A stretch of DNA of 64,000 bases from Dictyostelium discoideum. Taxonomy: Eukaryota. Under the pieces are notes generated by a model, which saw only the letters and a program-made list of their open reading frames with translations, was not told where the DNA came from and made no database searches. The position numbers and the translations under genes are program-made. Positions 23,220 through 63,694 of this stretch are shown here, in pieces. Location: positions 4,096,001-4,160,000 of the forward strand of contig CM000150.2 of NCBI GenBank assembly GCA_000004695.1, given 5' to 3'. Within the stretch, counting starts at the first letter, position 1; every line of letters starts with the position of its first letter.

Positions 23220-23223
<4 letters not shown>

Positions 23224-26200: not shown

Positions 26201-26441
26201 TGTTAAGGTTATTATCCACTGAACAGTCTACATTGAAGTCTCCAGTTATAATATCGCTGTGTAGTATTTCTTCTGTGAGATTTTCCTTATACCATTCATG
26301 TCTTTCGTTTGACTTTGCTGGGGCATAAATGGTTGTGCATTTGATCTGTGTTTTTGCAATCATCCATTCGGAAGATATAATTCTTTCGTTTATTGTTTTT
26401 GTTGTTGTTTTTATTTGGGTGTTGATGATGATTTGTGACAC
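23220..26441 (-). CDS. TRE5-A ORF2: apurinic-like endonuclease, reverse transcriptase and a C-terminal zinc knuckle.
   Basis: 1073-aa ORF containing ...ITGDFNVDCS... (EEP endonuclease), RT blocks ...PGKDGLLPTFYK..., LQFADDTATIAYN (YxDD-type) and CQQCGEDETSEHIFFNCKAH. Confidence 0.85.
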
Positions 26442-26653
26442 CCCTTGTCCTGTTTTATCAATTGGTGCGTGGTGTGTTATTTTGTTTTTATATTGTTGAT
26501 TTATTGAGTAAATTTTATTTGTTTTTATATTTGTTTCAGTTAGAAGTGCTGCGTCCAGCTTGTTGTTGTCTAAAACGGTGTTTATTATGCTGGCAGATTG
26601 GATGGTGTTGGATCCTTGGACGTTCCAAACACCTATTCTTATTGTGTTTTTCT

Positions 26654-27988
26654 TTATAGTTTTATTTGGGGTAGATTTTTATCTACCTTTTGAAGTTTCT
26701 GGTTTATTTTGTCTTCTAACTGATCTTTACTTTGTTCGTTGTGTTGTTGGTCTTGTGTGTTTGTGGGGTTTTTTGATTTATTGATTTGTTTTAGAATTTC
26801 CTTGTTGAAGTTGTCTATATCTTCATCCATTTTTGTTTTTATGCTTTTTTGTCCATATTCACCCAATTTTGGTTTGACTGGTGTTTTGTTGGTCTTGTTT
26901 GTTTTGTCTTGTTGTTTCTTTTTTGGTGTGTTTAACAATTTACTTGGTGAATCGATAATTTTCGATGGTGTACCATAGGTTGGGCTGAAACTCATGATAT
27001 GTTTTATTGGAGAGGAGAAGAACCATTGATTTGAAGGGATTGAAAGTGGGAATTCTATTTTTCTTATTGCATCAGTGTTTGGGCTGGTGAAGTCGAAGAT
27101 ATCATTTGCCTCTCTAAGTTTTTCTTCCGTTGTTAGTCCCTTTGTTTCGCCGTGTTGTTTTATTGGTGTATTGTATGGAGATGGTGGTTCGATAGGTTTT
27201 TCTGATTTTGTTTTAATTTCTTGATTGTTTATCGATTGTGTATTGATCTCATTCTCTATTCTTGTTAGTTCATCTACGTTTTCTAGTGATGCTTCTATTA
27301 CCTTTTGAGCTGTATCATCTAGGGCCATAAATGTTTTATCATTAGATGAGGATGTGATTGGTGGGATAATGATTGTTCTTTTTCCTTGTTTTGGTATTTG
27401 TTCTGATGTAAATTGTGGTTGTTGTTCATCTGATTGTTTTTTATTTTTGTTTTCTTCTTGATTTTCTGGTAATGAGGTTTGATCTCTCCATCCTTTGTTG
27501 GAGTGTCCAATTAATGTTAAATTGTCTAGTTCAATGATAGTGTCAAATTCTTCTACGACTCTTTTCACTGTTTTGATAATTAGAGTTTCGCCTTTAATTT
27601 CTGATTTAATTAGTTTACATCCTTCATTTTCTATTACCCATTCTATTTCTGTGAGTGATTTATACCAATCAAAATCTGTATACATATTTTTTGGTCTTAT
27701 AGTGGTTATAAATTGTCCTTTTAATTCTGCATCAAACATATTTACAAAATAGATTACTGTACTAATACTGTCTGTGAGAATTTTGAATGTATTATTACTT
27801 TTGATTAAAACATCTTTTTTGTCCAAACTTTTTTCTAAATCTTTTTTTATTTTATCGTCTGGTTCGTGATTGATGTTTATGACGTATTTGAATTGTTTTT
27901 TTTTTAATTGAGTTTTATCCACAATTTCGCTTATTTTTTGTAGGCATTTGTGTTGCTTAATATTTGTGGTGTTGTTTGTGATTTTCAT
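26654..27988 (-). CDS. TRE5-A ORF1 (444 aa).
   Basis: This ORF starts inside the B-module. Its N-terminal about 75 residues (MKITNNTTNIKQHKCLQKISEIVDKTQ...KSNNTFKILTDSIST) are identical to the partial second copy at 63771..64000. Confidence 0.8.
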   Translation of the reverse strand: MKITNNTTNIKQHKCLQKISEIVDKTQLKKKQFKYVININHEPDDKIKKDLEKSLDKKDVLIKSNNTFKILTDSISTVIYFVNMFDAELKGQFITTIRPKNMYTDFDWYKSLTEIEWVIENEGCKLIKSEIKGETLIIKTVKRVVEEFDTIIELDNLTLIGHSNKGWRDQTSLPENQEENKNKKQSDEQQPQFTSEQIPKQGKRTIIIPPITSSSNDKTFMALDDTAQKVIEASLENVDELTRIENEINTQSINNQEIKTKSEKPIEPPSPYNTPIKQHGETKGLTTEEKLREANDIFDFTSPNTDAIRKIEFPLSIPSNQWFFSSPIKHIMSFSPTYGTPSKIIDSPSKLLNTPKKKQQDKTNKTNKTPVKPKLGEYGQKSIKTKMDEDIDNFNKEILKQINKSKNPTNTQDQQHNEQSKDQLEDKINQKLQKVDKNLPQIKL

Positions 27989-28064
27989 TTTATTTTCTTT
28001 CTATCTTTTTTATTTTTCTTTAAAAAGTTAAAAATCTGGAAATTTTCTAATTAACTTGGGTTCC

Positions 28065-28107
<43 letters not shown>

Positions 28108-28110
<3 letters not shown>

Positions 28111-29175
28111 TCTTTTTTATATGAAAAATGAAATAATCAAAAAAAGAGATTGTTGTTGTTGTTTGTTTTTTTCGATCTGATTATTTTTTGCTTTTTTTTT
28201 GAAAATTTTGCTACGCAAAATTCTCAAAACGAAACAAATAATAAATTACAATAAAGTAAAAAGATGGCTTTTTAAAATAGTTTATTTATTTATTTATTTG
28301 TTTTTTAAGTCTTTTTTATATGAAAAATGAAATAATCAAAAAAAGAGATTGTTGTTGTTGTTTGTTTTTTTCGATCTGATTATTTTTTGCTTTTTTTTTG
28401 AAAATTTTGCTACGCAAAATTCTCAAAACGAAACAAATAATAAATTACAATAAAGTAAAAAGATGGCTTTTTAAAATAGTTTATTTATTTATTTATTTGT
28501 TTTTTAAGTCTTTTTTATATGAAAAATGAAATAATCAAAAAAAGAGATTGTTGTTGTTGTTTGTTTTTTTCGATCTGATTATTTTTTGCTTTTTTTTTGA
28601 AAATTTTGCTACGCAAAATTCTCAAAACGAAACAAATAATAAATTACAATAAAGTAAAAAGATGGCTTTTTAAAATAGTTTATTTATTTATTTATTTGTT
28701 TTTTAAGTCTTTTTTATATGAAAAATGAAATAATCAAAAAAAGAGATTGTTGTTGTTGTTTGTTTTTTTCGATCTGATTATTTTTTGCTTTTTTTTTGAA
28801 AATTTTGCTACGCAAAATTCTCAAAACGAAACAAATAATAAATTACAATAAAGTAAAAAGATGGCTTTTTAAAATAGTTTATTTATTTATTTATTTGTTT
28901 TTTAAGTCTTTTTTATATGAAAAATGAAATAATCAAAAAAAGAGATTGTTGTTGTTGTTTGTTTTTTTCGATCTGATTATTTTTTGCTTTTTTTTTGAAA
29001 ATTTTGCTACGCAAAATTCTCAAAACGAAACAAATAATAAATTACAATAAAGTAAAAAGATGGCTTTTTAAAATAGTTTATTTATTTATTTATTTGTTTT
29101 TTAAGTCTTTTTTATATGAAAAATGAAATAATCAAAAAAAGAGATTGTTGTTGTTGTTTGTTTTTTTCGATCTGA
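28108..29175 (-). repeat. Tandem array of the TRE5-A A-module: 5 complete 199-bp units plus a roughly 70-bp partial unit abutting the tRNA-proximal end.
   Basis: Unit starts on the plus strand (aagtcttttttatatg...) fall at 28108, 28307, 28506, 28705, 28904 and 29103, an exact 199-bp period. The same unit in reverse complement recurs at 62981-63658. Confidence 0.9.
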
Positions 29176-29225
29176 AAAAAATTTAAAATCCAAATTTGGT
29201 TAAAAAAATTTTTATTCTCATGTTA

Positions 29226-29298
29226 GCTCGATTAGCTCAGTCGGCAGAGCGTGGTGCTAATAACGCCACGGTCGCAGGTTCGATCCCTGCATCGAGCA
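29226..29298 (+). tRNA. tRNA-Ile, anticodon AAT.
   Basis: Manual cloverleaf: acceptor GCTCGAT/ATCGAGC, D-arm GCTC AGTCGGCA GAGC, anticodon stem TGGTG/CGCCA with loop CTAATAA, T-arm GCAGG TTCGATC CCTGC, discriminator A. Total 73 nt. Confidence 0.9.
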
Positions 29299-34683: not shown

Positions 34684-39261
<4,578 letters not shown>

Positions 39262-40185: not shown

Positions 40186-42233
40186 ATGACTCAAAGAAGT
40201 TTAAAGATAAATATTATTGAAGGTAAAGATTTAAAAGGATTAGATAGTGGTGGTGTTAGTGATTGTTATGTTAAATTTAAATGTGGCCCAATCTCAGCCA
40301 AAACAGAAGTAATTAAAAAATCAACAAGCCCAATTTGGAATTATATGATTAATATGTAATATTATTTTTTATTAATTATTAATATAATAATAATAATAAT
40401 ATTTATAAATAATTATATACTAATTATATATTATTTAGTGGAAATGTTGAAGAGAATACATTATTACAATTTGAATGTTTTGATTGGGAGAGAATAGGTA
40501 ATAATAGAACTATGGGAAAAACACAAGCATTTGTTAGTGATTTATCAAGTGGAGCAAAAAGAAATTTAATGGATCAATGGTTAAGATTAGATACTAAAGG
40601 ATTCATTAGAATTTCATATGAATTTACTCCACCATATCCATTAGAAACAGAATCAACCAATTCACCAAATTTATCAGTAGTTGGAAATGGTAGTAGTAGT
40701 AGTAGTAGTTTAATGTATAATCCAACACCAGTTTATTTTAAACCAATTTTCTTACCAACAATACCATCAGAAACAATAAATAATAATAAAAGTACAACAT
40801 GTCATTTTTTAATTCCAGGATCAGTTTATCAAACTAGACCATTTGTATGTGGTGAATTTGTAAATTGTTCATTAGTTTTAAATGTGTTTGAAGCAAGAAT
40901 TGTTGTTAGATCATTGAATTTATCATTTTCAGGTTCTATTACTTATAAAGGTAAAAAACAAAGAAAATTAGTTAATGATTATAGAGATTTACTATTAGGA
41001 TTTACTGGTGGTGTTCCAGTACCAAATAATAATGGTAATAATAATTTAACATCAAATAAAGTTGTATTGGAAAGAGGTAAACATGTATTTCCATTTCAAT
41101 TTTTCATTGATAAAACTTGTAAATCCACTGTGAATTTAACAGATTATAAAGTGAATTATTATCTCTCATTTCATGCTGATATTGTTAATCAACCAGATAT
41201 TTCTGCATCACAAGAGATTAAAGTTGTCAATTTAGAAGACACAGTTTATAAACAAACCATATCACCAATAAATGCACAAACATCGAAATCACCACTAACT
41301 GGTGGTAATATTTCAATTTCGTGTAAATCAGTAAAGAATAGTTTTTACCCTGGTGAAGAGATAGAGTTAGAGGTTGAGGTTAATAATAGTAGTAAAAAGA
41401 AGATAAAGAATGTTGATATTCAATTGAACAAGGTGGAATACGATGGCACTGACGTGACAGGCACCTCCTACCAATTGTTGACTATGACAAAGAAATTCTA
41501 CCCAAAGATTAAACAAAACACAGCATGCAAGCAAATGGTAGTCATTGAATTACCATCAACAACACAGTGTGTGGGTTTGATTCATTCAATAGCTGAGACT
41601 AAGATGATAAGAGTTGAGTATCATTTACTTGTGAATTTGGATATCCCAAGTTGTGTTGACCTTCGTTTGAAATTACCAATTACCATAGTTCAACCAGACC
41701 CAAAGTTTGAAACACTTCCAAATCCATTGACTGAAATTGGTAATTTACCACGTTACGTTAAAGATTGGTCAATTAAAAATTTCCATAGTTGGGTTCTATT
41801 TAAAAAACAATGTCCAGATGTGATGGCTTTGAATCCGGAATTCTATCAATATAATCTCTCTGGCTCTGATTTAATGCAACTTCCAACGGAAACCCTCTAT
41901 TCAATATTCAAAGGAGCCGGTCCAAGGACTCAAGAATTGGTTAATGATTTACAATCTCAAATCTTTGAAATTAAATTGGTTAGAAATTTCCTTAAAGAAC
42001 TTCAACTTTCAAATTTAATAGATTACTTTGAAAAACAAACTATCACTTGGGATATTCTATTACAATTAAATTATAATGAAATTTTTTCAATTACTGATAT
42101 CACTATTGGTGATGCAAAAAGAATATTTTTAAAGATTCAACAAATTCAATCTGAAAGACAAAAACAACAAGAACAACAAGAACAGCAAGTTGTTTCAAAC
42201 CTTGAAGCTGTTAGTTTACAAAAATCAGAATAA
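40186..42233 (+). CDS. Arrestin-domain-containing protein with an N-terminal C2 domain and a C-terminal SAM domain (AdcB/AdcC-like). Two exons: 40186..40355 and 40439..42233.
   Basis: Exon 1 encodes LKINIIEGKDLKGLDSGGVSDCYVKFKCGPISAKTEVIKKSTSPIWNY (C2-like). The intron runs GTAAT...TTATTTAG. The middle region is arrestin-like. The C-terminus WSIKNFHSWVLFKKQCPDVMALNPEFYQYNLSGSDLMQLPTETLYSIFKG is SAM-like and is followed by a poly-Q tail. This C2, arrestin, SAM order matches the Dictyostelium AdcB/AdcC architecture as I remember it. Confidence 0.7.
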
Positions 42234-42890: not shown

Positions 42891-45800
42891 ATGAAAAATT
42901 ATTTTATTGTTTTTTTATTTCTTTTAAAACTATTATTATTATTTAATTGTATGCTTTTTTTATTTATTTTTTTAATTTTTAAATAAACAACCCATTTTAT
43001 TAATATTTTATTTTTTAAAACTTTTTTTTTTTTTTTTTTTTAAAAATTAATTTAATATAGGTTGTAATTCACAAGTTTCAATTGGAGAATTATACAATGA
43101 TGACGAAATAGATTCAAAATATTCTGATGGACAAGGTAACTACCACTTTAAATTAAATTATTTTCCAACAAGCACAAATTCAAATTACAATGGTGAAGAA
43201 TTTTTAAGTTTAGAAAAAAGTGCCTCCATAAGAGCATATAGGTTAGCTCAAAGTTGTACATTAATTGGCGCATCAGTTAAAATAGAGGATTGTCAATTCA
43301 TTGGACCATCTCCAGCCTATAATGGTCTCCCCTATTCAATCGTTATATCATCAGATCTAACATTAACAATTGCAGGTTCAATAAAAAATATTCCAATTCT
43401 TATTGTCCAAGGTCGTCTAATATTGCATCCAAATTATAATGTAACACTTTCATTCTATAAGATGCAAATCTTATCACGTGGTACTTTTGAATCTGCACCA
43501 AATCAAGGAGTTAATCATACTATCATTGTAGAAAGATCACCTAATGATCTCCAAATTGATCCATGGGATAGAAAAGATATTCCATCAATACTATCACTTG
43601 GTGGTAATGTTACGATTAGAGGTTTCGATTCAAGTTCAACATGGACTGGTTATAATGTAGCAAATCGAACATCATTCATTAGATCTTTTCCATTCACAAA
43701 TAATTTACCAATTATCAAGCTCTATGGTCATAAAAGTTTGTATACCGGTTTAGACCAATATATTAGATTGGACACTTATTTCACTGAATATATGAAAGAC
43801 TACGGCGTTGGTAAATATGCATATTCACCAGAAGGTAGCATTAATTGGCAGTATCAGAAACACGCCGTTGGTAATATATTAGTACATCCATGGAATAAAA
43901 ATGTATGGATCAAAGGTATGGGTAGTTGTTCAATGGTTTTCACTGGTTCATCAACTGTAGATATTCAAAATTCAGTAATCCTCGATTTTGGTGATACAAC
44001 ATCATCACCACTCAATTCAAATAGTAATATTCCAAATAGATATCCCATCACATTATATCACAATAAAAAGTTTGTCAAAATTGAAAACAATTGTTTTCTC
44101 CCAGCACTTTTCACAAGAGTACCACAACAAAGCTCAACACCTAGATCATTCATTGGTGCGATTCGTTCATTTGGTAATATCATTGGTAATTCATTCATAT
44201 TGTCTGAAACAAACATTGGTGGTACTGTCTATAGTATGAGTGGTATATCATTATTATATGGCACTGAACAATTTAATATTAGCTTCAATTCATTCATGTC
44301 AATTTATCCAAATAGCTCATTAAACAATCCAATTTCATCAAGTAGACAATATCCAGATAATATCGATTATATCAATAGTGGTATTATTACAACTTCACCA
44401 TACTCATTTTATGAATCAAATGTATTTGAAGGTGGATTCAAAGGTAGTTCAATTCAAATTATTCCATTACAATCAAGATCAACAATTGCTGGTTTAAATA
44501 GTGATAGATTATTAGGTGTTTACAATGGATATGAACAATCAAATCTCAATGATAAAGTAACCAATAGTATTTGGAATAAAGTTATTTTCAAAGATAATGC
44601 ATTCTTTGGTGAATCAGAATTTCGTGTTACATATCCAATGTCATTACAACCACCAATTAAAATCAACTTTTTAAGAGGTTGGCATATTAATCAAAGACCA
44701 TCAGATGTTTTACCATTTAATGAAGCAAATGTCGATTACTCATATGATTCCTCTTTTGTTGCCAATGGTTTAACTAAATACGCTTGGTATAGTTTTTCAA
44801 ATATTTTTTCAGGTAAATGTAATAGTGTTTCATTTTCCAATTCAGATTTATCATTTTCCACTTCATTATTTTCATCTTCATTCAAATGTAATTATATTTC
44901 TATCGTTGATTCAAAATACAAAATAAATTTACATGAAGGAGATAATAGTTCAACCATTTTTAAAAGATTCACTGATCAAGTATACTTTTCAAATCTTAAT
45001 GGTTCTAAAGATGCTAAAAGTTTGGCACAGTTAAATGAATTTACACCTTTCCTCAACATATCACCAAATAATAGTCAAGCAATAACTCAAAATAATTTTA
45101 CTCTTTCATTCCTTCCAAGTTCTATAAGTTCATTTGAAAGTTTAAATCAATCAATTGAAGCCATCGTTGATGGTGTTTATCAAAATGTTACATTAATTAC
45201 TTTGCCATTTGATCCAATTCAATCAATGCCTATTCAATTACCACCATCTACTTCTAGTTTATATACAGTGGTTTTATCATCGAAATTGTCACTACCAGCT
45301 AGTCTTAACTTGAGCCTTCCAGAAGTAGGATCTTATTTTGCAAGTACTTATCTTTTAGATAACAATGCAAAAAATTTCTACCTTGGTATCGATTTAGCAC
45401 CATCCGATAGTAATACACCACGTAAACTTTCAGTAAATGGTAAAGATTGGACAAGATGTGATTGGATTCAATCATTAAATAAATGTACAACCTCTGGTAT
45501 GTTCTCATTGAGTTCTGTTGATATTCCATTTGGAACTGGTAGTGGTGGTCAAGATGAAATTTCAATGATTAAAACTTACCTTGGTAATGATGTAACCAAT
45601 GGTATTCCAAGTACACTCAATATATCATTAGCAGGTCCACATTCATACAAGTTTTATTTATATTCATTTAATTCAGATTGGACAGATTCAATCATTAATC
45701 CAACACCATTATTTTCAATTAAAATCAATGGTAAATATCAAGAACCAATAACAAGATCAGCACCAATATATCTTCAATCTAAAAGATATGGTCCATTCTA

Positions 45801-45933
45801 TTGGAATAATATTAATTCAAATGAACAAGTTTTATCAATTGATTGGGCAACTGATAATATTAAATATTCAATTCCATTATCTGGTATTGAAATTTATTCA
45901 AGTATTCAAACTCCATTCTCAATCCCATATTAA
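42891..45933 (+). CDS. Secreted protein, uncharacterised. Signal-peptide exon 42891..42948, then 43061..45933. Ser/Asn-rich, with possible beta-helix-like repeats.
   Basis: MKNYFIVFLFLLKLLLLFN is followed by a GT..AG intron of about 110 bp that keeps phase. An 836-aa ORF then runs with many N-glycosylation sequons (NVT, NRT, NIS) and no TM segment. Function is not recognised. Confidence 0.65.
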
Positions 45934-46039
45934 CAAATGGTAAATCTTTTTTTATATTTGTTCCATTCACAGTGACTCAACGAAAAAATAAAAAATAAAA
46001 AATAAAAAAAAATATAACTTTTTTTAAAAAAAGTTTTGG

Positions 46040-46049
46040 TTGCGATATC

Positions 46050-46080
<31 letters not shown>

Positions 46081-46583
46081 ATTTGGCGATTGGTTCAACG
46101 GACGCTATCGAAGATGACCAAAGGAAAACTGATTGTCGATCTCGGTTTGAATATTCAAAAAATATTGAAAAAAAAAAAAAAAAATATGGAAATAATTTTG
46201 TGTAACCCATTATTTTCACTCCTCACAATAAAACATTTCATATCCTCTTTATTAATTTTATTATTTATATTTTTTTTTTTTTTTCATTGGTGTTGTTTCA
46301 GAATAAGATTCAAAAAAAAAAAAATTTTTAATTAACTTTTTTTAACTGTAAATAGAGACTGGTACCTGATGTGTTGTGATTGAGAGAATGATAAAATAAA
46401 TATTCGCTGTATCCTAACAACTTTTTGTTTATATTTTATAATGAAAGATTATAAAATATTATTTTACGACAAAAAAAAAAAAAATACTTTTCGTTTATTT
46501 TTTACAAATCACAGTAAAAAAAAAAAAAAAAGAAAAAAAAAATAAATAAAAAACATACTTTTCGTTTATTTTTTACAAATCAT

Positions 46584-46622
<39 letters not shown>

Positions 46623-47230
46623 AAAAAACATTGCCAAAGAATTTTTTGGTGGCTGGTTGAAAATGAAAGGGCGGTATTGAAGATGAATAATGGAAACTGA
46701 TTGTGGATCTTGGTTAGAATATTCATAAAAAAAAAAAAAAATTAAAATTAAAAAAAAAAAAAAAAGTGGAAATATTTTCGTGCAACCCATTATTTTCCCA
46801 CCTCCAATTTTTTTTTTTAAAAACGTTAAACATAACAAACTTATTTTCACATTCTTTATATTAATTTTATTTTTTTTTCATTGGTTTTTTTTTTGCTGGA
46901 TCAAGATTCAAAAAAAAAAAAATAAAAAAATTTTTTAAAAAAAAAAATAATTTAATAATTTGTTGACTGTTAATAGAACAAGTGTTTGCCTCAGGTGTGT
47001 TGTGATTGAGAATGCCGAAATTAATATTCGCAGCATCTTATCAACAAAAGTGGAACCACTTTTCGTTTATTTTTTACAAATTATAGAAAATTATAATTAA
47101 AATAATATTATTTTACGATAAAAAAAAAAATATTTAAAAGAAAAAAACTAAATTATATTTTTTTTTTTTTTTTTTTGTTATAAAATAATAGTTAATATAG
47201 CTAAATTATAGTTATAATTTTTAAAAAAAA
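46040..47230. repeat. Two tandem copies of a conserved non-coding upstream module (about 46040-46560 and about 46600-47230). A third copy is at 51600-52270, and each copy precedes a secreted-protein gene.
   Basis: Shared blocks are ggcgattggtt..cgaagatga..ggaaaactgattgtcgatctcggtttgaatattcaaaaaatattgaaaaaaa, tggaaata.ttt.gtgtaacc.attattttc.c, cattggtgttgttt.agaat.aagattcaaaaaaa, ..tcaggtgtgttgtgatt.ga..aatg and ttttcgtttattttttacaaat. They are interspersed with variable A/T tracts. Confidence 0.7.
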
Positions 47231-47231
47231 T

Positions 47232-47295
47232 ATGAAATTAATTTCAATAATTTTTTCCTTATTTTTAATAATCAATTTGGTTTTTTCTACAGGTA

Positions 47296-47327
<32 letters not shown>

Positions 47328-50300
47328 CAGAAAAATAAAATATTATTCAGTTTTAAATTATTTTAATAGTAAAAAAATCAATCAATTAAATAAATAAATC
47401 ACCGGAGGTACTCTTGTGTTACAAATTTGGTTTCACAATTATCATATTTTAATTTATTTTAGAATTTTTTTTTTTTTTTTTTTTCTAATTTTTTTTTTTT
47501 TTAATAATTTAAAAATAATAATAATAATATTAATATAATAATAAAAATCATTTAAAAGATCCAACAATTGTTAGTTTTAGAAAGCCAGTTGAAAAAGTAT
47601 ATCCAAGTGAATATTGTTTGCCATCTTTCACTATATTGATTAATTATCCAGATCCAATCCAATATAATTATCAATTAGGTTTATATGATAGGAGTGGAGG
47701 GTATGGTGGCAGCATGCCATCTGCCGTAAATGGAACCTTATATCTTTTTACACTTACACATAAAGTTCCAATTGGTAAAAATCAACCAGTTTCTTTGTAT
47801 ATCCAAGATACCTCAAAAAATCCATGGTTTACTTTTGATTTCAATAACTATACTACCTATGATTGCGATCCACTTCCACCTGTTACTATGAAATCAAAAC
47901 AAAATACTTGGATTAAAACTAGTGGCCAATATTCCAATTTAATTTGGTACCATATGGTTGAAGTTTCAGGTTTAGATAAATCAGCTCCATACGATGCTTT
48001 TACATGTAATGTTCCAAAGCCATTTATTTGTATGTTCCAAGAGTTTCTTAATGGTCCAAAACCAATCAATTTTTATTTCCAAGTTGGAATTTATACGACA
48101 GATGTAAACTTCGCCCCATTCAATGTAACTGTTACAGATAAACTAGGTAAAGTTTTACTTAATAGTCTTTTTGATGGTTTAAGTGCACCAGCAAACCCAC
48201 CTGTTTCAATTAGATCCTTAGAAAATTATCCAATCAATGGTTCAACTGTTACTAAAAATGAAATGGTTAATGATGCAATGTATATTATGAATATCATAAA
48301 CAAAAATGCTCTTTGTGGTATTTCATCACCAAAAGATTTTTTGATTTCAAATATATTAATCCCAGTTTTAGGTACACCTGCAAATGCTTCTTACATTGGT
48401 TTCTCATCTTTTAACTATCAAAATAGTCCAATTAAATCCCATGTTCAGATCATTGATAGTCAAGGTACAAAAAGAATTGGTATTGATAATGTGCTTTTTG
48501 TTAATCGTAAGTATTTATATTTTTATTTAGATTTTTTTTTATTTTTTATATATACTAATTATAATTTTGTATTTATTATTTTAAAATAGCAAAATCTTAT
48601 GATAATGTCATTGAAAATGTTCAAAATGCAACCTATGTTAAAAGCTCTAATATTAATAAAACTTTAATTAATATTAAGGCTGATGTTTCATTTAATCCAA
48701 AAGCTACTTTAACAAGTAGCTTTTCAACTTCTTTATACCAAACAGTGTTAGCATATCCATATGGTTATTCAAATGGTACAGTTAAATACCATTCAGTTTC
48801 ATTGTCATCTGCATCTCCAGAGTATTCCACTTCTTCAAATTCATATATAATTTTAGGCTCTCCATCTGAAATCGGATCCGGTAATTCATCACTAATCACA
48901 GTTAATCCAAATTCAACAATAGGTAAGAATTTATCTTTTATAAAATTACTTTATAAACATCGGCTTATATTAATCATTTTATCATATATTTTTTAATAAT
49001 ATTGTTATTATGCTTTAGAAACAAAAATACCACAACTTTTGAAAGTTGAAACCGTTTTCCTTTCATATGAAAAAGTACTTACCAGAGTTTTTGCTAAAGA
49101 TGTTGATTCTGGTATTTCATTTTTGTATTTATCAAATTTAAATAAAGTTTCCTCTGCCGATTTAGTATATGGTGATAATTTCAATGGTGTTTATGAATCT
49201 GTTGAAACATTTACCACCATGTATGGCAATGAAAGACCAACCGTTTCAATCTATGATAATGCTGGTAATAATATTCAATACAATAATATGCAACCAACAT
49301 TCGATACATCATTCAATATGATCCCTGAATACCCTGCTTACAGTATGTATTTTTTAAATAATATTAATTTCTTTTTAAAAAAAAAAAAACAAACTACTAA
49401 ATTATTAATAAAATTACTTTATTATAGCAATGATTAAAAACCAAGCCAATTTAGACCCATACACTTTCACTGGTTTTGAATTTAAGTACAATGATGTTGA
49501 TGTTTCAAATGGTCCATTCAATAATACTTTATGTATGAACTTTGCAGGTTCCAATAAAACAATGACTCCACGTTTCTTACAATTTTCTTTAGCATTAAAT
49601 CCGGAAAAGGCATCATTAGATAACGCCACACCAGGCTCATGGGATGAAGTCAAAGGTATGTTTTGTATGGATTTCCAAATTCCAGCAAGAATTTTCACTG
49701 GTGAATATACATATGCTGTTCTCATTCCACCATTCGTTTATGACTCTTACTATTTTGCTATTTCAGTTGGTAGTAAAGCTCAATTAAGAGTTAACTCAGG
49801 TTTTGCTGATCAAATGCCACCTATCATTACTGAATTCTCTTCATATCCATCAAATGCTGTTAATGTCACTCAAGATACTGTTGTCGGTTGGAATATTAGA
49901 ATTGAAGATTCTCCAAATGGTTTAGCAAGTGGTGAATTTAATATCACAAGTGATTTCGATTTAGAACCATATAGAATTAAGATTACTCCAGCCAATGCTG
50001 TATCTGGTGATATTTTCAGTTCTACATATCAATTAAGAATTCCAATTAAAGCAAACACTTGTAGATCTCAATCATTTAGAATTTCATCAGCATCAATTAC
50101 TGATACAATGGGTCATACTTCAGTTTTACCATCTTCTGGAAATGTTAATCCATTATATAAATTCTTAGAATCACCACACTTGGTTTTAAATATTACTTGT
50201 CCACAAGCTATCATCGATAATACCCCACCATCTTTAATTAGTTTCTCAACTGTTAGTTCAATCGAAGTTGGTGCTTATAAAGATTTTAGAAATGTTACAT

Positions 50301-51175
50301 TTACCTTCAAAACATCAGATTCTGGTTCTGGTATTTCATCAAGACACAATCCAAAAATCTATTTATCATCAGGTGAATTTGATCAAATTTCAAAGATTAG
50401 TACATTGGTATCCAATGTAAATGGTGTCGCTACTTATACCTGCACTATTGAATTACCATATGGTTATGGTTCATATAATGGAATTCTTGTTTCAATATAT
50501 GGTATTGTTGATAATAAATTAAATATTAATGGTTATTCATCAGTTGATCTCCAACAACTCGGTTTCCAAAATACAATTAAAGTTTTATATTCTGATGTAC
50601 CAGTACTTGATTACACAAGTTCAATTAAATCAACTGAATCATCATTGACTATCTATGGTCATAAATTTGGTATCGATAGAAGTAAAGTTACATTACAAGT
50701 TGATTATATGAAGGGTCAAGGTTGGAAGAATACAACAATCTCATTCTTTTCTGGTATTATTTTAATGACTGATAATATTACACCAACATCAACACCATTC
50801 TACGTTCGTGTTATTGTAGATGGTAAAATTTCAAATCAACTTTTAGTAGTTCCAATCATTGTTGGTGATAGTCCATGTAGTTATGAAGTTATTCAATCAA
50901 TAGTTGCTACTTGGATCGATAGTGAAAAATATCCATATCTTCAAGCATCTATCACTATTAAAAATACAGGTACAAGACCAATTAAAGCATTTAGTTTCAT
51001 TATTGAAAAAATTGCTTATGGTCAAATTTGGGGTGTTGATGCAAATGGTAATAATAGATACACTTTACCATCATATAATTTAATCATTAATCCTCGTGAT
51101 CAATATAGTTTCGGTTATATCATTCAAGGTACAACTGTTGCTGATCTCAAACAAGTCACTTATACTTGTCTTTAA
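47232..51175 (+). CDS. Secreted beta-repeat protein, tandem copy A. 5 exons (47232..47292, 47559..48506, 48590..48922, 49019..49342, 49428..51175), 1137 aa.
   Basis: The signal peptide MKLISIIFSLFLIINLVFST runs into a GTAAGT donor. Every junction is GT..AG with a consistent phase, and the total is 3414 nt = 1138 codons. There is no TM or GPI-like tail (...DLKQVTYTCL*). The repeats resemble those of the 2007..6857 gene. Confidence 0.8.
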
Positions 51176-52135
51176 AAATTTCAATTTAGTTTTGGAATAA
51201 TAAAAAAAAAAAACCCTTTTGGAGTGTAAAAATAAAAATAAAACATTCAAATTTGCCGTCAGTAAAAAAAAAGATTTAATTTTATTTATTTTAAAAATAA
51301 ATTTAGTATATATGAATAGAGTACTCAAAAATGAACAAAATGAATTCTTTAAATAAAATTAATTGTGTTTAATTATTTTTTATATTTTTTTATTTTTATA
51401 TAAAATATAAATATTTGTCTTTCATACTCTAGAGAATATTTATTTATTTATTTTTTTTTTTTCGAATAACGGCTAAAATTGGCATGGACAAATACCATCG
51501 CGGTATGAAAAAAAAAAAATAAAAAAAATAACAAAAAAAATTAAAAAATAAAAAGATGAAAAAATTATACGACCTATTCATCCTAATTAACTTAAAAACT
51601 CGTCATTCGGTGATTGCGATATCAAAAAAAAAAAAAAAAAAAAAAGTTAATAAATTAAAAATATGGCCCAAGAATTTTTTGGTGATTGGTTGAAAATGAA
51701 AAGACGGTATCGAAGATAACTAATGGAAAACTGATTGTCGATCTTGGTTTGAATATTCAAAAAATATTGAAAAAAAAAAAAAGTGGAAATAGTTTCGTGT
51801 AACCTATTATTTTCCCACCTCGAAATTTTTTAAAAATATTAAATTAAACATAAAAAACTTATTTTCATATTTTTTTTTTAATTAATTTTTTTCATTGGTG
51901 TTGTTTTAGAATCAAGATTCAAAAAAAAAAAAATAATAAAAATAAAAATAAAAATAATAATTTTAAATAGTTTGTGCTGACTGTTAACATAACAAGGGAT
52001 TTGACTCAGGTGTGTTGTGATTTGAAGAATGCTGAAATCAATATTTGCTGCATCTTATCAACAAAAACGAAATCATTTTCGTTTATTTTTTTTACAAATT
52101 ATAGAAAATTATAATTAAAATAATATTTTTTTACG

Positions 52136-52180
<45 letters not shown>

Positions 52181-52272
52181 GTATTTAAAAAAAAAAAAAA
52201 TAGTTTTTTTTTTGTAAAATAATAGTTAACAATAACCAAATTATAGTTATAATTTTTTATTTTAAAAAAAAT

Positions 52273-52490
52273 ATGAAATCAATTTCAATAATTTTTTCCT
52301 TATTTTTAATAATCAATTTGGTTTTTTCTGCTGGTAAGTTTTTTTTTTTTTTATTTTTAAAATAAATAAAAAATTATTTAGTTTCAAATTATTTTAATAT
52401 TAATGATTAATGAATCAATTAAAAAAATATTAATGGAATTAACTATTGTGAAATTACAAATTTGGTTTCACAATTATCATATTTTCATTC

Positions 52491-52522
<32 letters not shown>

Positions 52523-55500
52523 TTATTTTTCATTTTTTAAATAATTTAAAAATAATAATATTAATGTAAATTTTTTATTATTATTTTAAAGATCCAACAA
52601 TTGTTAGTTTTAGAAAGCCAGTTGAAAGAGTATATCCAGGTGAATATTGTTTGCCTTCTTTCACTGTATTGGTCAATTATCCAGATCCAATCCAATATAA
52701 TTATCAATTAGGTTTATTTGATAAGAGTGGAGGATATGGTAGCAACATACCATCTGCTGTAAATGGAACCTTATATCTTTTTACACTTACCCATAAAGTT
52801 CCAATTGGTAAAAATCAACCAGTTTCTTTGTATATTCAAGATTACTCAAAAAACCCATGGTTTACTTTTGATTTCAATAACTATACTACCTATGATTGCG
52901 ATCCACTTCCACCTGTTACTATGAAATCAAAACAAAATACTTGGATTAGATCAAGTGGCCAATATACCAATTTAGTTTGGTACCATATGGTTGAAGTTTC
53001 AGGTTTAGATAAATCAGCTCCATACGATGCTTTTACATGTAATGTTCCAGAACCATTTTATTGTGCATTCCAAGAGTTTCTTAATGGTCCAAAACCAATC
53101 AACTATTATTTCCAAATTGCAATTCGTAAAAGTGATGTAAATTTCACCCCATTCAATGTAACTATTACAGATAAACAAGGTAAAGTTTTACTTAATAGTC
53201 TTTTTGATGGTTTAAGTGCACCAGCAAACCCACCTGTTTCAATTAGATCCTTAGAAAATTATCCAATCAATGGTTCAACTGTTACTAAAAATGAAATGGT
53301 TAATGATGCAATGTATATTATGAATATCATAAACAAAAATGCTCTTTGTGGTATTTCATCACCAAAAGATTATTTTATTGGAAATACATTAATCCCAGTT
53401 TTAGGTACACCTTCAAATGCTACTTACATTGGTTTCTCATCTTTTTTATATCAAAATGGTCCAATTGAATCTCATGTTCAAATCATTGATAGTCAAGGTA
53501 CAAAAAGAATTGGTATTGATAATGTGCTTTTAATTAATCGTAAGTTTAAAAAATTATAATAATTATTTTAATCTTTTTATATAATCACACTAATTATATT
53601 TTAATTATTTTTATTATTAAACAGCAAAATCTTATGATAATGTCATTGAAAATGTTCAAAATGCAACCTATGTTAAAAGCTCTAATATTAATAAAACTTT
53701 AATTAATATTAAGGCTGATGTTTCATTTAATCCAAAAACTTCTCACACAAGTAGCTTTTTATCTTCTCAAAGAGAAACCGTCTTAGATTATCCATATGGT
53801 TATTCAAATGGTACAATTAAATACCATTCAGTTTCATTCTCAAAAACATCTCCAGAGTATTCCACTTCTTCAAATTCATATATGAGTATAAACTCTCCAT
53901 CTGATATCGGAAATGGTAATTCATCACTAATTGAAATTGCTACAAATTCAACTATAGGTAAGAATTAATATTATTATTTAAAAAAGATAAATTATTAAAT
54001 ATATTAATCATTCGATCATATTTATTATTATTATTATTATTCTTAAGATTCCAAAATACCACAACTTTTGAAAGTTGAAACTGTATTCCTTTCATATGAA
54101 AAAGTACTTGTCAGAATTTTTGCTAAAGATGTTGATTCTGGTATTTCATATTTGCATTCTACAAATTTGCATAAAATTTCCCCAGCCGATTTAGTATATG
54201 GTGATAATTTCAATGGTGTTTATGAAACTGTTGAAACATTAGCAACTATGTATGGTAATGAAAGACCAACCGTTTCAATCTATGATAATGCTGGTAATAA
54301 TATTCAATACAATAGTATGCAACCAACATTCGATACATCATTCAATATGATCCCTGAATACCCAGTTTACAGTATGTATTTTTAATATTAAAAAAAAAAA
54401 AAAAAAAAAAAAAACAAACAAAACATTAAATAAATTATTAATAAAATTACTTTATTATAGCAATGATTAAAAACCAAGCCAATTTAGACCCATACACTTT
54501 CACTGGTTTTGAATTTAAGTACAATGATGTTGATGTTTCAAATGGTCCATTCAATAATACTTTATGTATGAACTTTGCAGGTTCTAATAAAACAATGACT
54601 CCACGTTTCTTACAACTTCCTTTAGCATTAAATCCAGAAAAGGCATCATTAGATAACGCCACACCAGGCTCATGGGATGAAGTCAAAGGTATGTTTTGTA
54701 TGGATTTCCAAATTCCAGCAAGAATTTTCACTGGTGAATATACATATGCTGTTCTCATTCCACCATTCGTTTATGACTCTTACTATTTTGCTATCTCAGT
54801 TGGTAGTAAAGCTCAATTAAGAGTTAACTCAGGTTTTGCTGATCAAATGCCACCTATCATTACTGAATTCTCTTCATATCCATCAAATGCTGTTAATGTC
54901 ACTCAAGATACTGTTGTCGGTTGGAATATTAGAATTGAAGATTCTCCAAATGGTTTAGCAAGTGGTGAATTTAATATCACAAGTGATTTCGATTTAGAAC
55001 CATATAGAATTAAGATTACTCCAGCCAATGCTGTATCTGGTGATATTTTCAGTTCTACATATCAATTAAGAATTCCAATTAAAGCAAACACTTGTAGATC
55101 TCAATCATTTAGAATTTCATCAGCATCAATTACTGATACAATGGGTCATACTTCAGTTTTACCATCTTCTGGAAATGTTAATCCATTATATAAATTCTTA
55201 GAATCACCACACTTGGTTTTAAATATTACTTGTCCACAAGCTATCATCGATAATACCCCACCATCTTTAATTAGTTTCTCAACTGTTAGTTCAATCGAAG
55301 TTGGTGCTTATAAAGATTTTAGAAATGTTACATTTACCTTCAAAACATCAGATTCTGGTTCTGGTATTTCATCAAGACACAATCCAAAAATCTATTTATC
55401 ATCAGGTGAATTTGATCAAATTTCAAAGATTAGTACATTGGTATCCAATGTAAATGGTGTCGCTACTTATACCTGCACTATTGAATTACCATATGGTTAT

Positions 55501-56208
55501 GGTTCATATAATGGAATTCTTGTTTCAATATATGGTATTGTTGATAATAAATTAAATATTAATGGTTATTCATCAGTTGATCTCCAACAACTCGGTTTCC
55601 AAAATACAATTAAAGTTTTATATTCTGATGTACCAGTACTTGATTACACAAGTTCAATCAAATCAACTGAATCATCATTGACTATCTATGGTCATAAATT
55701 TGGTATCGATAGAAGTAAAGTTACATTACAAGTTGATTATCAGAATGGTCAAGGTTGGAAGAATACAACAATCTCATTCTTTTCTGGTATTATTTTAATG
55801 ACTGATAATATTACACCAACATCAACACCATTCTATGTTCGTGTAATCGTAGACGGTAAAATTTCAAATCAACTTTTAGTAGTTCCAATCGTTGTTGGTG
55901 ATAGTCCATGTAGTTATGAAGTTATTCAATCAATAGTTGCTACTTGGATCGATAGTGAAAAATATCCATATCTTCAAGCATCTATCACTATTAAAAATAC
56001 AGGTACAAGACCAATTAAAGCATTTAGTTTCATTATTGAAAAAATTGCTTATGGTCAAATTTGGGGTGTTGATGCAAATGGTAATAATAGATACACTTTA
56101 CCATCATATAATTTAATCATTAATCCTCGTGATCAGTATAGTTTTGGTTATATCATTCAAGGTACAACTGTTGCTGATCTCAAACAAGTCACTTATACTT
56201 GTCTTTAA
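52273..56208 (+). CDS. Secreted beta-repeat protein, tandem copy B. 5 exons (52273..52333, 52592..53539, 53625..53957, 54048..54371, 54461..56208), 1137 aa.
   Basis: Same exon lengths and phases as copy A, offset by 5041 bp. The last exon is near-identical to copy A, while exons 2-3 are clearly diverged. Confidence 0.8.
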
Positions 56209-56837
56209 AAATTTCAATTTAGTTTTGGAATAATAAAAAAATAAAAAAAAAATGAAAAAAAAAAATAAAAATAAAATAAAAATAAAAATAAAAAAAATAT
56301 AAAAATAAAAATAACACCATAATTATTTTTTTATATATCATTTTGTGTAATTTCGAGAGCTCTATTTTTATATTAAAAAAAATATATAAACATTCTTTTT
56401 TTTTTCATTATGCAAAAACAACAAAGTGTTATTATTACAAAAAATTTATAAAATTTTTTTTTTATTAAATTTTATATTTATTTTTATTTTTTTTTTCATA
56501 ATTATCAAATGTAGATATTTTTTTTTTAAAGTTAATAGTAATAATGGATAATGAAAAAAATGGAAATATCTTTTTCACAAACATTATCTCACATTTTCAA
56601 AAGAAAATTACCAAATCTTTTCAAAAAAAAAAAAAAAAAAAAAAAAATTAATGACATCGCATGATTTTTTTATTTATTGAAAAAAAAGAAGATATTTTCA
56701 TCGGGAATAATCAAAAACTTTTTTTTAAAAAAAAAATTTATTTTTAGTTTTATTTTTTTTTTTCTACACACCATTTTTTTTTTTTTTTAATAATTTTTTT
56801 TTTTTTTTTTTTATTTAATAATTTTTTTTTATAAACA

Positions 56838-62836: not shown

Positions 62837-62869
62837 TGTGATTTAATTGTGGAAAAATTAAAAAAATTT

Positions 62870-62942
62870 CGCCCAAAGGGGGGCTCGAACCCCCGACCAC
62901 AAGGTTAAAAGCCTTGCGCTCTACCGACTGAGCTATCTGGGC
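62870..62942 (-). tRNA. tRNA-Lys, anticodon TTT.
   Basis: Minus-strand sequence GCCCAGA TA GCTC AGTCGGTA GAGC G CAAGG CTTTTAA CCTTG TGGTC GGGGG TTCGAGC CCCCC TTTGGGC G. This is a full 73-nt cloverleaf with the anticodon loop CTTTTAA. Confidence 0.9.
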
Positions 62943-62980
62943 ATTTGTATATTTTTTTTTGAAACTATAGCAGTACTTGA

Positions 62981-63657
62981 TCGTTATACAAAAAAACAAA
63001 CAACAACAACAATCTCTTTTTTTGATTATTTCATTTTTCATATAAAAAAGACTTAAAAAACAAATAAATAAATAAATAAACTATTTTAAAAAGCCATCTT
63101 TTTACTTTATTGTAATTTATTATTTGTTTCGTTTTGAGAATTTTGCGTAGCAAAATTTTCAAAAAAAAAGCAAAAAATAATCAGATCGAAAAAAACAAAC
63201 AACAACAACAATCTCTTTTTTTGATTATTTCATTTTTCATATAAAAAAGACTTAAAAAACAAATAAATAAATAAATAAACTATTTTAAAAAGCCATCTTT
63301 TTACTTTATTGTAATTTATTATTTGTTTCGTTTTGAGAATTTTGCGTAGCAAAATTTTCAAAAAAAAAGCAAAAAATAATCAGATCGAAAAAAACAAACA
63401 ACAACAACAATCTCTTTTTTTGATTATTTCATTTTTCATATAAAAAAGACTTAAAAAACAAATAAATAAATAAATAAACTATTTTAAAAAGCCATCTTTT
63501 TACTTTATTGTAATTTATTATTTGTTTCGTTTTGAGAATTTTGCGTAGCAAAATTTTCAAAAAAAAAGCAAAAAATAATCAGATCGAAAAAAACAAACAA
63601 CAACAACAATCTCTTTTTTTGATTATTTCATTTTTCATATAAAAAAGACTTAAAAAA

Positions 63658-63694
<37 letters not shown>

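Follow-up and report, generated by a model that had tools for sequence, protein, structure and literature searches.

A duplicated 5' intergenic region and a partial extra copy of it upstream of a tandem gene pair in Dictyostelium discoideum

Introduction

In the 64-kb stretch of Dictyostelium discoideum DNA considered here (hereafter the window), a non-coding sequence of approximately 450–650 bp is present in three co-linear copies on the same strand, referred to below as modules M1, M2 and M3. M2 and M3 lie directly 5' of two copies of one gene, here gene copy 2 and gene copy 3, while M1 is found immediately upstream of M2. An earlier note on this DNA had counted one module more than there are genes, and the count is correct, with three modules against two intact genes (47232–51175 and 52273–56208). 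The locus raises the question of whether the conserved blocks and variable A/T spacers that make up the modules reveal a sequence maintained by selection, as a promoter, an enhancer or a small RNA, and of how the supernumerary copy came about. The repeat is real but of an ordinary kind, in that a region containing a promoter has been duplicated and part of it is present in a further tandem copy, and the modules probably represent the intergenic DNA 5' of one gene, with its promoter, multiplied by a tandem segmental duplication. In annotation they are best described as the 5' intergenic or promoter region that two tandem genes owe to duplication, with a partial extra copy, and not as a candidate ncRNA or a novel element; beyond annotation the locus has little import.

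The features referred to in the text are the following (the basis of each is given in brackets):

43423–45933: ORF, the neighbouring gene 5' of M1, with its stop codon approximately 100 nt before the start of M1
46040–46486, + strand: M1, an extra, truncated copy of the distal upstream region (alignments)
46473–46631, + strand: head-to-tail junction of M1 and M2, with 2.2 copies of a 71-nt unit (TRF)
46590–47131, + strand: distal part of M2, located 5' of gene copy 2 and with homology to both M1 and M3 (alignments)
47132–47231, + strand: proximal part of M2, putative core promoter and 5'UTR (sequence, T-run, alignment)
47232–51175, + strand: gene copy 2, 1137 aa (five-exon model checked by translation; Pfam)
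51614–52140, + strand: distal part of M3, upstream of gene copy 3, the copy nearest to the three-way consensus (site patterns)
52141–52272, + strand: proximal part of M3, with TATA-like box, T-run and 5'UTR up to the ATG (sequence, alignment)
52273–56208, + strand: gene copy 3, 5 exons, 1137 aa

The Gene Pair and Its Tandem Duplication

The gene models were drawn by eye from the splice sites and then checked by translation. Gene copy 2 consists of exons 47232–47292, 47559–48506, 48590–48922, 49019–49342 and 49428–51175, and both genes share an identical exon structure, with 3414 nt, 1137 codons and zero internal stops. The encoded protein carries a signal peptide and, according to Pfam, the domains DUF7743, DUF7035, DUF7034 and CBM49. 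A homologue search returned proteins of Polysphondylium violaceum and Heterostelium album only, while an exact-protein look-up gave no match and a metagenome search for relatives of the protein gave 0 confirmed loci.

Global alignment of positions 46400–51700 with positions 51400–56800 delimits a co-linear homology extending from approximately 46590/51614 to approximately 51200/56235, with a period of approximately 5033 bp; identity is 75–100% inside these limits and drops to 45–60%, i.e., to background, beyond them. The duplicated unit, of approximately 4.6 kb, comprises about 640 bp of upstream sequence, the five-exon gene and about 25 bp past the stop codon. Over codons 1–720 the gene pair shows pS=0.077 and pN=0.058, whereas the 3' 1.2 kb of the two copies are 100% identical, which points to recent and active gene conversion in the pair. 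Two same-strand units at a constant period of approximately 5033 bp, together with a conversion tract, are what is known from tandem segmental duplication of a gene with its promoter and subsequent gene conversion, and the divergence of upstream, intron and synonymous sites, all of approximately 8–12%, is a further likeness. The locus differs from this known system in two respects, that is, a unique spacer of approximately 410 bp (51200–51610), which has no counterpart before unit 2 or after unit 3, and the additional partial copy of the upstream region alone. The neighbouring ORF 43423–45933 is not a third copy, as no relationship between it and the duplicated genes was detected, and its upstream side is devoid of any copy of the module.

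Extent and Similarity of the Three Modules

Taken as a whole, M2 spans positions 46590–47231 and M3 positions 51614–52272. The first module had been extended in the earlier note to 46560, but the homology of M1 stops at approximately 46486, and M1 misses the ATG-proximal 100 bp or so and has neither TATA-like box nor T-run, 5'UTR or ATG. The homology of the three stretches is confirmed by a three-way MAFFT alignment of M1, M2 and M3, in which mean column identity is 78%. Pairwise identity over aligned columns amounts to 78–84% with MAFFT and to 87–90% with a gap-permissive global aligner, M1 being 87% identical to M3 and 88% to M2 over aligned columns, with 128–139 gap columns. Expressed as aligned-column distances, the values are 10.3% (M2–M3), 12.2% (M1–M2) and 12.8% (M1–M3), and the three copies are thus nearly equidistant. 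Three-way site patterns comprise 308 invariant sites, 51 sites specific to M1, 34 specific to M2 and 15 specific to M3; in the third of the module that contains blocks B4 and B5, copy-specific sites number 20, 4 and 5, respectively. On the left, the flank TTGCGATATC(A)n is common to M1 and M3, while the left flank of M2 is the junction with M1; to the left of TTGCGATATC, a homology test of M1 against M3 yielded an A-rich low-complexity match only.

As to the blocks quoted in the earlier note, they are real and go far beyond chance, the expectation per block in the window being 0–0.2 matches, but their description as almost perfectly conserved in all three copies does not hold, since most of them are intact in one or two copies. 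The 29-mer GGTTTGAATATTCAAAAAATATTGAAAAA, which contains a palindrome, is exact in M1 and M3 and has more than three mismatches in M2, and the GT-rich 20-mer CATTGGTGTTGTTTCAGAAT behaves in a similar way (0 mismatches in M1, 1 in M3, more than three in M2); in M2 both the palindrome block and the GT-rich block have been degraded by the spread of A-runs and T-runs. Conversely, the 21-mer TCAGGTGTGTTGTGATTGAGA is exact in M2 alone, with 3 mismatches each in M1 and M3. The 18-mer GTGTAACCCATTATTTTC shows 0, 1 and 1 mismatches across the copies. Finally, the 22-mer TTTTCGTTTATTTTTTACAAAT is found exactly at 46488, 46559 and 47060, two of these occurrences being within the 71-nt tandem repeat, while it carries a 2-nt insertion in M3 and its positional homologue in M1 is degenerate.

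The ORFs 46036..46335(+) and 46566..46850(-) start with TTG or GTG, represent A/T runs read through into K/F-rich sequence and have not been preserved in M3; they had been called spurious, and we agree, given their non-ATG starts and the lack of preservation between copies. A short coding frame running through block B1 (…EFFGDWLKMKRRYRR, followed by a stop) was also considered and rejected, its ATG being present in M3 only.

Block-Wise Conservation and the Local Neutral Level

The reference against which the similarity of M2 and M3 can be read is provided by the genes that they precede, and the upstream and intron comparisons of the pair were made with one and the same aligner. M2 and M3 differ at 63 of 609 aligned sites (10.3%; identity 89.7%) and the four introns at 60 of 482 (12.4%; identity 87.6%), while the synonymous difference is 7.7%; the upstream value departs significantly from neither of the other two (Fisher p=0.29 against introns, p=0.17 against synonymous sites). 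The same is true of G/C-containing columns, in which mismatches between M2 and M3 reach 12.9% upstream vs. 16.0% in the introns (p=0.36). Since the similarity of M2 and M3 equals that of introns and synonymous sites, the alternation of blocks and spacers is no sign of constraint, and the view that block-wise conservation of this kind argues against neutral duplicated DNA is not sustained by these figures. No excess conservation of the blocks over the local neutral level was found for M2–M3 by comparison with introns, with synonymous sites or with permutations; the longest exact runs, of 52, 41 and 37 nt, fit a random placement of mismatches (permutation p=0.16–0.31), and clustering of mismatches is modestly raised in M1–M3 only (dispersion 1.79, p=0.006).

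The pattern would rather be a mutational artefact, in which A/T homopolymers slip in length fast and complex sequence changes by slow point substitution. A/T-only runs 10 nt or more in length contain an excess of gap columns, 3.1-fold in M2–M3 (p=2e-6) and 4.3-fold in M1–M3 (p=4e-12), and point mismatches affect 12.9–17% of the positions in G/C-containing blocks vs. 2.5–7% in A/T runs. Reading the pattern as an artefact of recent duplication agrees with the known mutation spectrum of D. discoideum, in which, as measured by mutation accumulation, indels arise at twice the rate of base substitutions and those in SSRs concern mainly homopolymeric A:T runs (PMC7466956). For AT-rich genomes this entails a caution, i.e., conserved blocks separated by variable A/T spacers are what is expected from slippage-prone runs combined with slow substitution, and paralogous non-coding patterns of this type should be tested against the introns and the synonymous sites of the same duplicates before constraint is claimed.

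Base composition adds two observations. On the M1 branch, changes have been about twice as frequent at G/C sites as at A/T sites (18/91 vs. 33/317), which is the opposite of what would be expected if GC-rich blocks were protected. The GC content is 21% in the modules and 29–37% in the blocks, as compared with 11% in intron 1 and 17% in the neighbouring spacer, and GC-to-AT and AT-to-GC changes in the modules are balanced; taken together, the balanced flux and the GC-richer blocks show the complex blocks to be free of visible decay, and this would accord with a degree of constraint, as expected of a promoter. Beyond the species, a metagenome scan with a 32-nt degenerate pattern of B1 gave 0 matches, and the loci of P. 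violaceum and H. album have nothing but random 10-mers in common with the modules, these species being too distant for non-coding comparison.

Origin of the Extra Copy

The way in which M1 is joined to M2 is informative as to its origin. At the junction, TRF reports a repeat of period 71 with 2.2 copies, 90% matches and a score of 258, whose unit combines the initial 30 nt of block B5 with an A-run and with ATAAATAAAAAACAT, the sequence that opens the module. Since it is exactly the two ends of the copied segment that make up this repeat, M1 and M2 constitute a partial tandem duplication in head-to-tail order, one breakpoint being located in the A-run with which the module begins and the other just within B5. 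Most likely, M1 originated as a by-product of unequal exchange. The distal 450 bp or so would have been placed, as a partial head-to-tail duplicate, immediately upstream of M2, by unequal exchange or replication slippage between short A-rich sequences located at the module start and inside B5, and the junction would then have been duplicated again to give the 71-nt repeat. The head-to-tail arrangement of M1 and M2, the extent of the copy, from the start A-run to B5, and a junction made of both ends are all features of partial tandem duplication between short repeats; the locus departs from this model in that M1 is not nearest to M2, as a recent local duplication predicts.

The equidistance of M1 is also one of the reasons to consider that it could be the surviving upstream region of a third gene, lost by deletion through crossing-over between B5 of unit 1 and the start A-run of unit 2, a history that we regard as rather unlikely and that the earlier note had put forward for the orphan module. 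M1 is about equally far from M2 and M3 (12–13% of aligned columns), instead of being nearest to its neighbour M2, its left flank TTGCGATATC is the same as that of M3, as expected of the start of a unit, and the breakpoints suit a deletion as well as a duplication. On the other hand, the lower M2–M3 distance can be explained by gene conversion spreading from the genes, and nothing but the 71-nt junction repeat is present between M1 and M2, with no coding, core-promoter or 3'-flank remnant. A three-gene array followed by a deletion also costs two events, one more than direct partial duplication. Direct partial duplication in one event is therefore preferred, as it accounts for the same breakpoints with one event fewer and the deletion would have left no remnant.

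The branch leading to M3 is short (15 specific sites against 34 and 51), and no clock-like tree fits the three copies. This might possibly be ascribed to gene conversion from the genes into M2 and M3, to the run spreads in M2, or to relaxed constraint on a redundant M1/M2 pair.

Promoter and Regulatory Content of the Modules

In the classical core promoter of Dictyostelium, a TATA-like box precedes an oligo-dT run, and both are situated a short distance 5' of the ATG. A TATA-like box and an oligo-T run are located 55–85 nt before the ATG in both M2 and M3, and neither is present in M1. In M2, AATTATAT and T(19) occupy positions 47149–47176 (T-run 47158–47176), approximately 55 nt before the ATG at 47232; in M3, TATTTAAAAA is at 52182–52191 and T(10) at 52204–52213, the ATG being at 52273. 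Judging from this classical arrangement, the proximal parts of M2 and M3 are a putative core promoter and 5'UTR. By position alone, as they are directly 5' of the two gene copies, M2 and M3 must contain the promoters of these genes, and the suggestion of a shared promoter finds support in the fact that they adjoin gene copies 2 and 3 on the upstream side; M2 and M3 would serve as the promoters of genes 2 and 3, respectively. M1, which has neither a gene nor a core promoter of its own, may be either inert or a source of redundant upstream sites for gene 2.

Further upstream, the G/T-rich boxes GGTGTGTTGTG and GGTGTTGTT and the palindrome TTTGAATATTCAAA could, to judge from their sequence, be bound by transcription factors, and islands that are GC-richer than their surroundings (29–37% vs. 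11–17%) and in balanced flux are reasonable candidates for factor-binding sites. Developmental promoter elements of Dictyostelium include G/T- or C/A-rich boxes and TTGA-type repeats bound by STAT-family factors. The three motifs GGTGTGTTGTG, GGTGTTGTT and TTTGAATATTCAAA may bear a likeness to these elements and lie 250–500 bp before the ATG of a gene for a secreted protein with a cellulose-binding domain. In the window, TTGAATATTCAA has 8 matches with at most 1 mismatch, vs. 3.4 expected, a mild over-representation.

A stronger reading of the same motifs is that blocks B1–B5 are transcription-factor sites under purifying selection and have undergone complementary degeneration, with gene 2 needing M1 plus M2 and gene 3 the complete M3; in M1 it is the palindrome TTTGAATATTCAAA and the GT-rich box CATTGGTGTTGTTT that would have been retained, and in M2 blocks B4 and B5. 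We consider this unlikely. The palindrome and B3 blocks are indeed exact or nearly so in M1 and M3 and have more than three mismatches in M2, and in the B4–B5 third the sites specific to M1 are 20 as compared with 4 specific to M2. However, the losses in M2 are spreads of A- and T-runs, typical of slippage, in which one event counts as many "substitutions." The shortest branch is that of M3, with 15 sites against 34 (M2) and 51 (M1), a point in favour, but mosaic gene conversion, which is active in the genes, would likewise give M3 a central appearance. The GC content of the blocks exceeds that of the non-coding DNA around them, with a balanced substitution flux, and the G/T-rich boxes seem reminiscent of known Dictyostelium developmental elements; nevertheless, the divergence of M2 and M3 is no lower than that of introns or synonymous sites, and with n=3 sequences the statistical power is almost nil.

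In its most specific form, M1 and M2 would be complementary, partly degenerated duplicates and gene 2 would be run by a split enhancer (duplication-degeneration-complementation), which seems doubtful to us. The pattern behind it is that, of the M1/M2 pair, the palindrome TTTGAATATTCAAA and the GT box are intact in M1 alone and B4/B5 in M2 alone, while M3 would have kept all of them. If complementary degeneration were true, the locus would be a compact, testable case of the partitioning of duplicated promoter elements.

Dispersed Repeat or Structured RNA

That the modules are a dispersed repeat or a transposable-element fragment which happens by chance to lie upstream of these genes is very unlikely, as compared with their being the duplicated 5' region of the gene pair. 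Mobile elements abound in this genome, the window has two occurrences of a TRE5-A-like element and the blocks are GC-richer than usual intergenic DNA. Nonetheless, when the whole modules were matched against the window by complexity-filtered k-mers, and the quoted blocks were searched for as well, neither the blocks nor any complex 12-mer from the modules recurred in the other 62 kb or so of the window, retroelement included; furthermore, the copies are strictly co-linear with the gene duplication and have neither terminal repeats nor element ORFs.

The possibility that the module encodes a small structured ncRNA, either a Class I RNA driven by ACCCATTA, which is similar to a DUSE, or a snoRNA of box C/D-like type for which B1 would supply AGATGA...CTGA, can be set aside almost entirely, although a few resemblances are worth describing. 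Block B1 of M1 reads ATCGA-AGATGA-...-CTGA-...-TCGAT, which resembles C/D boxes enclosed by a 5-bp terminal stem, but in M3 box C is AGATAA and in M2 the terminal stem is broken, the full set being present in M1 only. A weak match to the C/D-box RNA sR20 was obtained in M3, with 15.3 bits (gathering score 44) and E=3. By contrast, in 45900–47300 and 51400–52300 there is no credible Rfam match with E up to 10, Class I RNA (RF01414) included; the best match in the scanned stretches, with E=0.86, is in the spacer upstream of M3.

Class I RNAs have an 11-nt motif, CCTTACAGCAA, which in this form is absent from the modules. The near-DUSE ACCCATTA is found in block B2 of M1 and M2 and has one mismatch, while its counterpart in M3, ACCTATTA, is further mutated; the exact DUSE (WCCCAYAA) occurs 3 times in the window and 0 times in the modules. 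In Class I RNA genes the DUSE is located approximately 60 nt upstream of the RNA start (PMC7919456), whereas the distance from the near-DUSE to the next block is approximately 65 nt in M1 and approximately 90 nt in M2 and M3. The only likeness to Class I RNA genes (RF01414; PMC7919456) is thus a DUSE-like octamer in a GC-containing island of AT-rich intergenic DNA; the modules differ from them in having no covariance-model match, no exact DUSE, no conserved spacing of approximately 60 nt and no terminal stem.

Folding leads to the same result. The fold z-scores of B1 and B4–B5, on both strands and against shuffles, range from -1.31 to +0.64, and the Alifold consensus fold of B1 has an energy of -4.9 kcal/mol with 0 compensated pairs and that of B4–B5 an energy of -5.0 kcal/mol with 1, on three sequences and hence with low power. 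In the B4–B5 fold the compensated pair is 1 of 14, but the third copy does not maintain it, and covariation contributes an unfavourable term. RNA-fold covariation across the copies, which the earlier note had proposed as a check, therefore gives no support on three sequences, and its suggestion of a structured ncRNA is left without signal from folds, z-scores or Rfam.

The Surrounding Window

The GC content of the 64-kb window is approximately 22%, with 11–17% in its non-coding DNA; its introns are of the gtaagt...ag type, and poly-Q/N ORFs are present. Together with the type of retroelement described below, this composition points to a social-amoeba genome of Dictyostelium type. A scan for sigma-70 promoters and intrinsic terminators is inapplicable to a eukaryote, and bacterial-style ORF tools are partly applicable. 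At Rfam gathering thresholds, two tRNAs are the sole passing matches in the whole window. The TRE5-A-like retroelement and its 199-bp repeats have two occurrences, and a TRE5-A-like retroelement lies approximately 50 bp upstream of a tRNA gene.

Sequence divergence between the two gene copies

The two tandem genes that follow modules M2 and M3, the homologous non-coding stretches upstream of copies 2 and 3, differ unevenly along their length. In the 3' half they are 100% identical across ~1.2 kb (49412-50611 in gene 2 and 54445-55644 in gene 3), which argues for recent gene conversion between them. Over the N-terminal codons 1-720, dN is 0.061 and dS 0.082 (dN/dS ~0.75), and within codons 401-500 dN (0.16) is higher than dS (0.14), which suggests that selection on the N-terminal half of both genes is relaxed or diversifying.

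Palindromic elements in the upstream modules

In M2 (47046-47063) and M3 (52065-52084), an 8-bp inverted repeat lies directly 5' of, and overlaps, B5, the last of the G/C-containing blocks, and its sequence differs by copy: M2 has AAAAGTGG-aa-CCACTTTT, whereas M3 has AAACGAAA-tca-TTTTCGTTT. In the truncated extra copy, M1, the segment carrying it is deleted. Either a conserved hairpin or dimer site may be present here, or template-switch mutations may have produced the repeat. A further candidate for a dimeric factor site is the perfect 14-nt palindrome TTTGAATATTCAAA, after which comes a third TTGA. M1 (46146-46159) and M3 (51748-51761) keep it intact, and M2 has two altered positions in it (TTAGAATATTCATA). 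Allowing at most one mismatch, TTGAATATTCAA occurs 8 times in the window vs 3.4 expected.

The spacer between the duplication units

M2 with gene 2 and M3 with gene 3 form duplication units 2 and 3, which are separated by a sequence that recurs neither downstream of unit 3 nor upstream of unit 2:

51200-51610, unique spacer of ~410 bp

It holds a GC-richer island with a T-run and an A-run on its flanks (51443-51527), to which the Rfam matches are symmetric and at chance level only.

Mobile elements and neighbouring genes

Two elements of one family accompany tRNA genes in the window:

23220-29298 region, non-LTR retrotransposon (minus strand), tRNA-Ile(AAU) included
26654-27988, minus, its ORF1 (444 aa)
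23220-26441, minus, its ORF2 (1073 aa; RVT_1, E=3e-33)
62869-63677, orientation opposite to the first array, second array of the same 199-bp unit (3.5 copies, 99% identity), tRNA-Lys included

The 5' end of the retrotransposon is formed by 5.5 copies of the 199-bp unit with 99% identity (28082-29175), an array ending 51 bp upstream of tRNA-Ile(AAU) (29226-29298), a placement characteristic of tRNA-gene-targeted TRE5-A elements. The second array, which begins 47 bp upstream of tRNA-Lys(UUU) (62869-62943, minus strand), represents a separate insertion event of this element family, again at that distance from a tRNA gene, and the remainder of its element extends past the window edge. Two other genes were annotated:

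40512-42233, plus, gene for an arrestin-N/arrestin-C and SAM domain protein (Pfam, E=6e-22, 2e-11 and 9e-5)
35089-39261, minus, poly-Q/N/T-rich ORF (1390 aa)

Judged by eye, the C-terminus of the latter looks like a putative response-regulator receiver domain.
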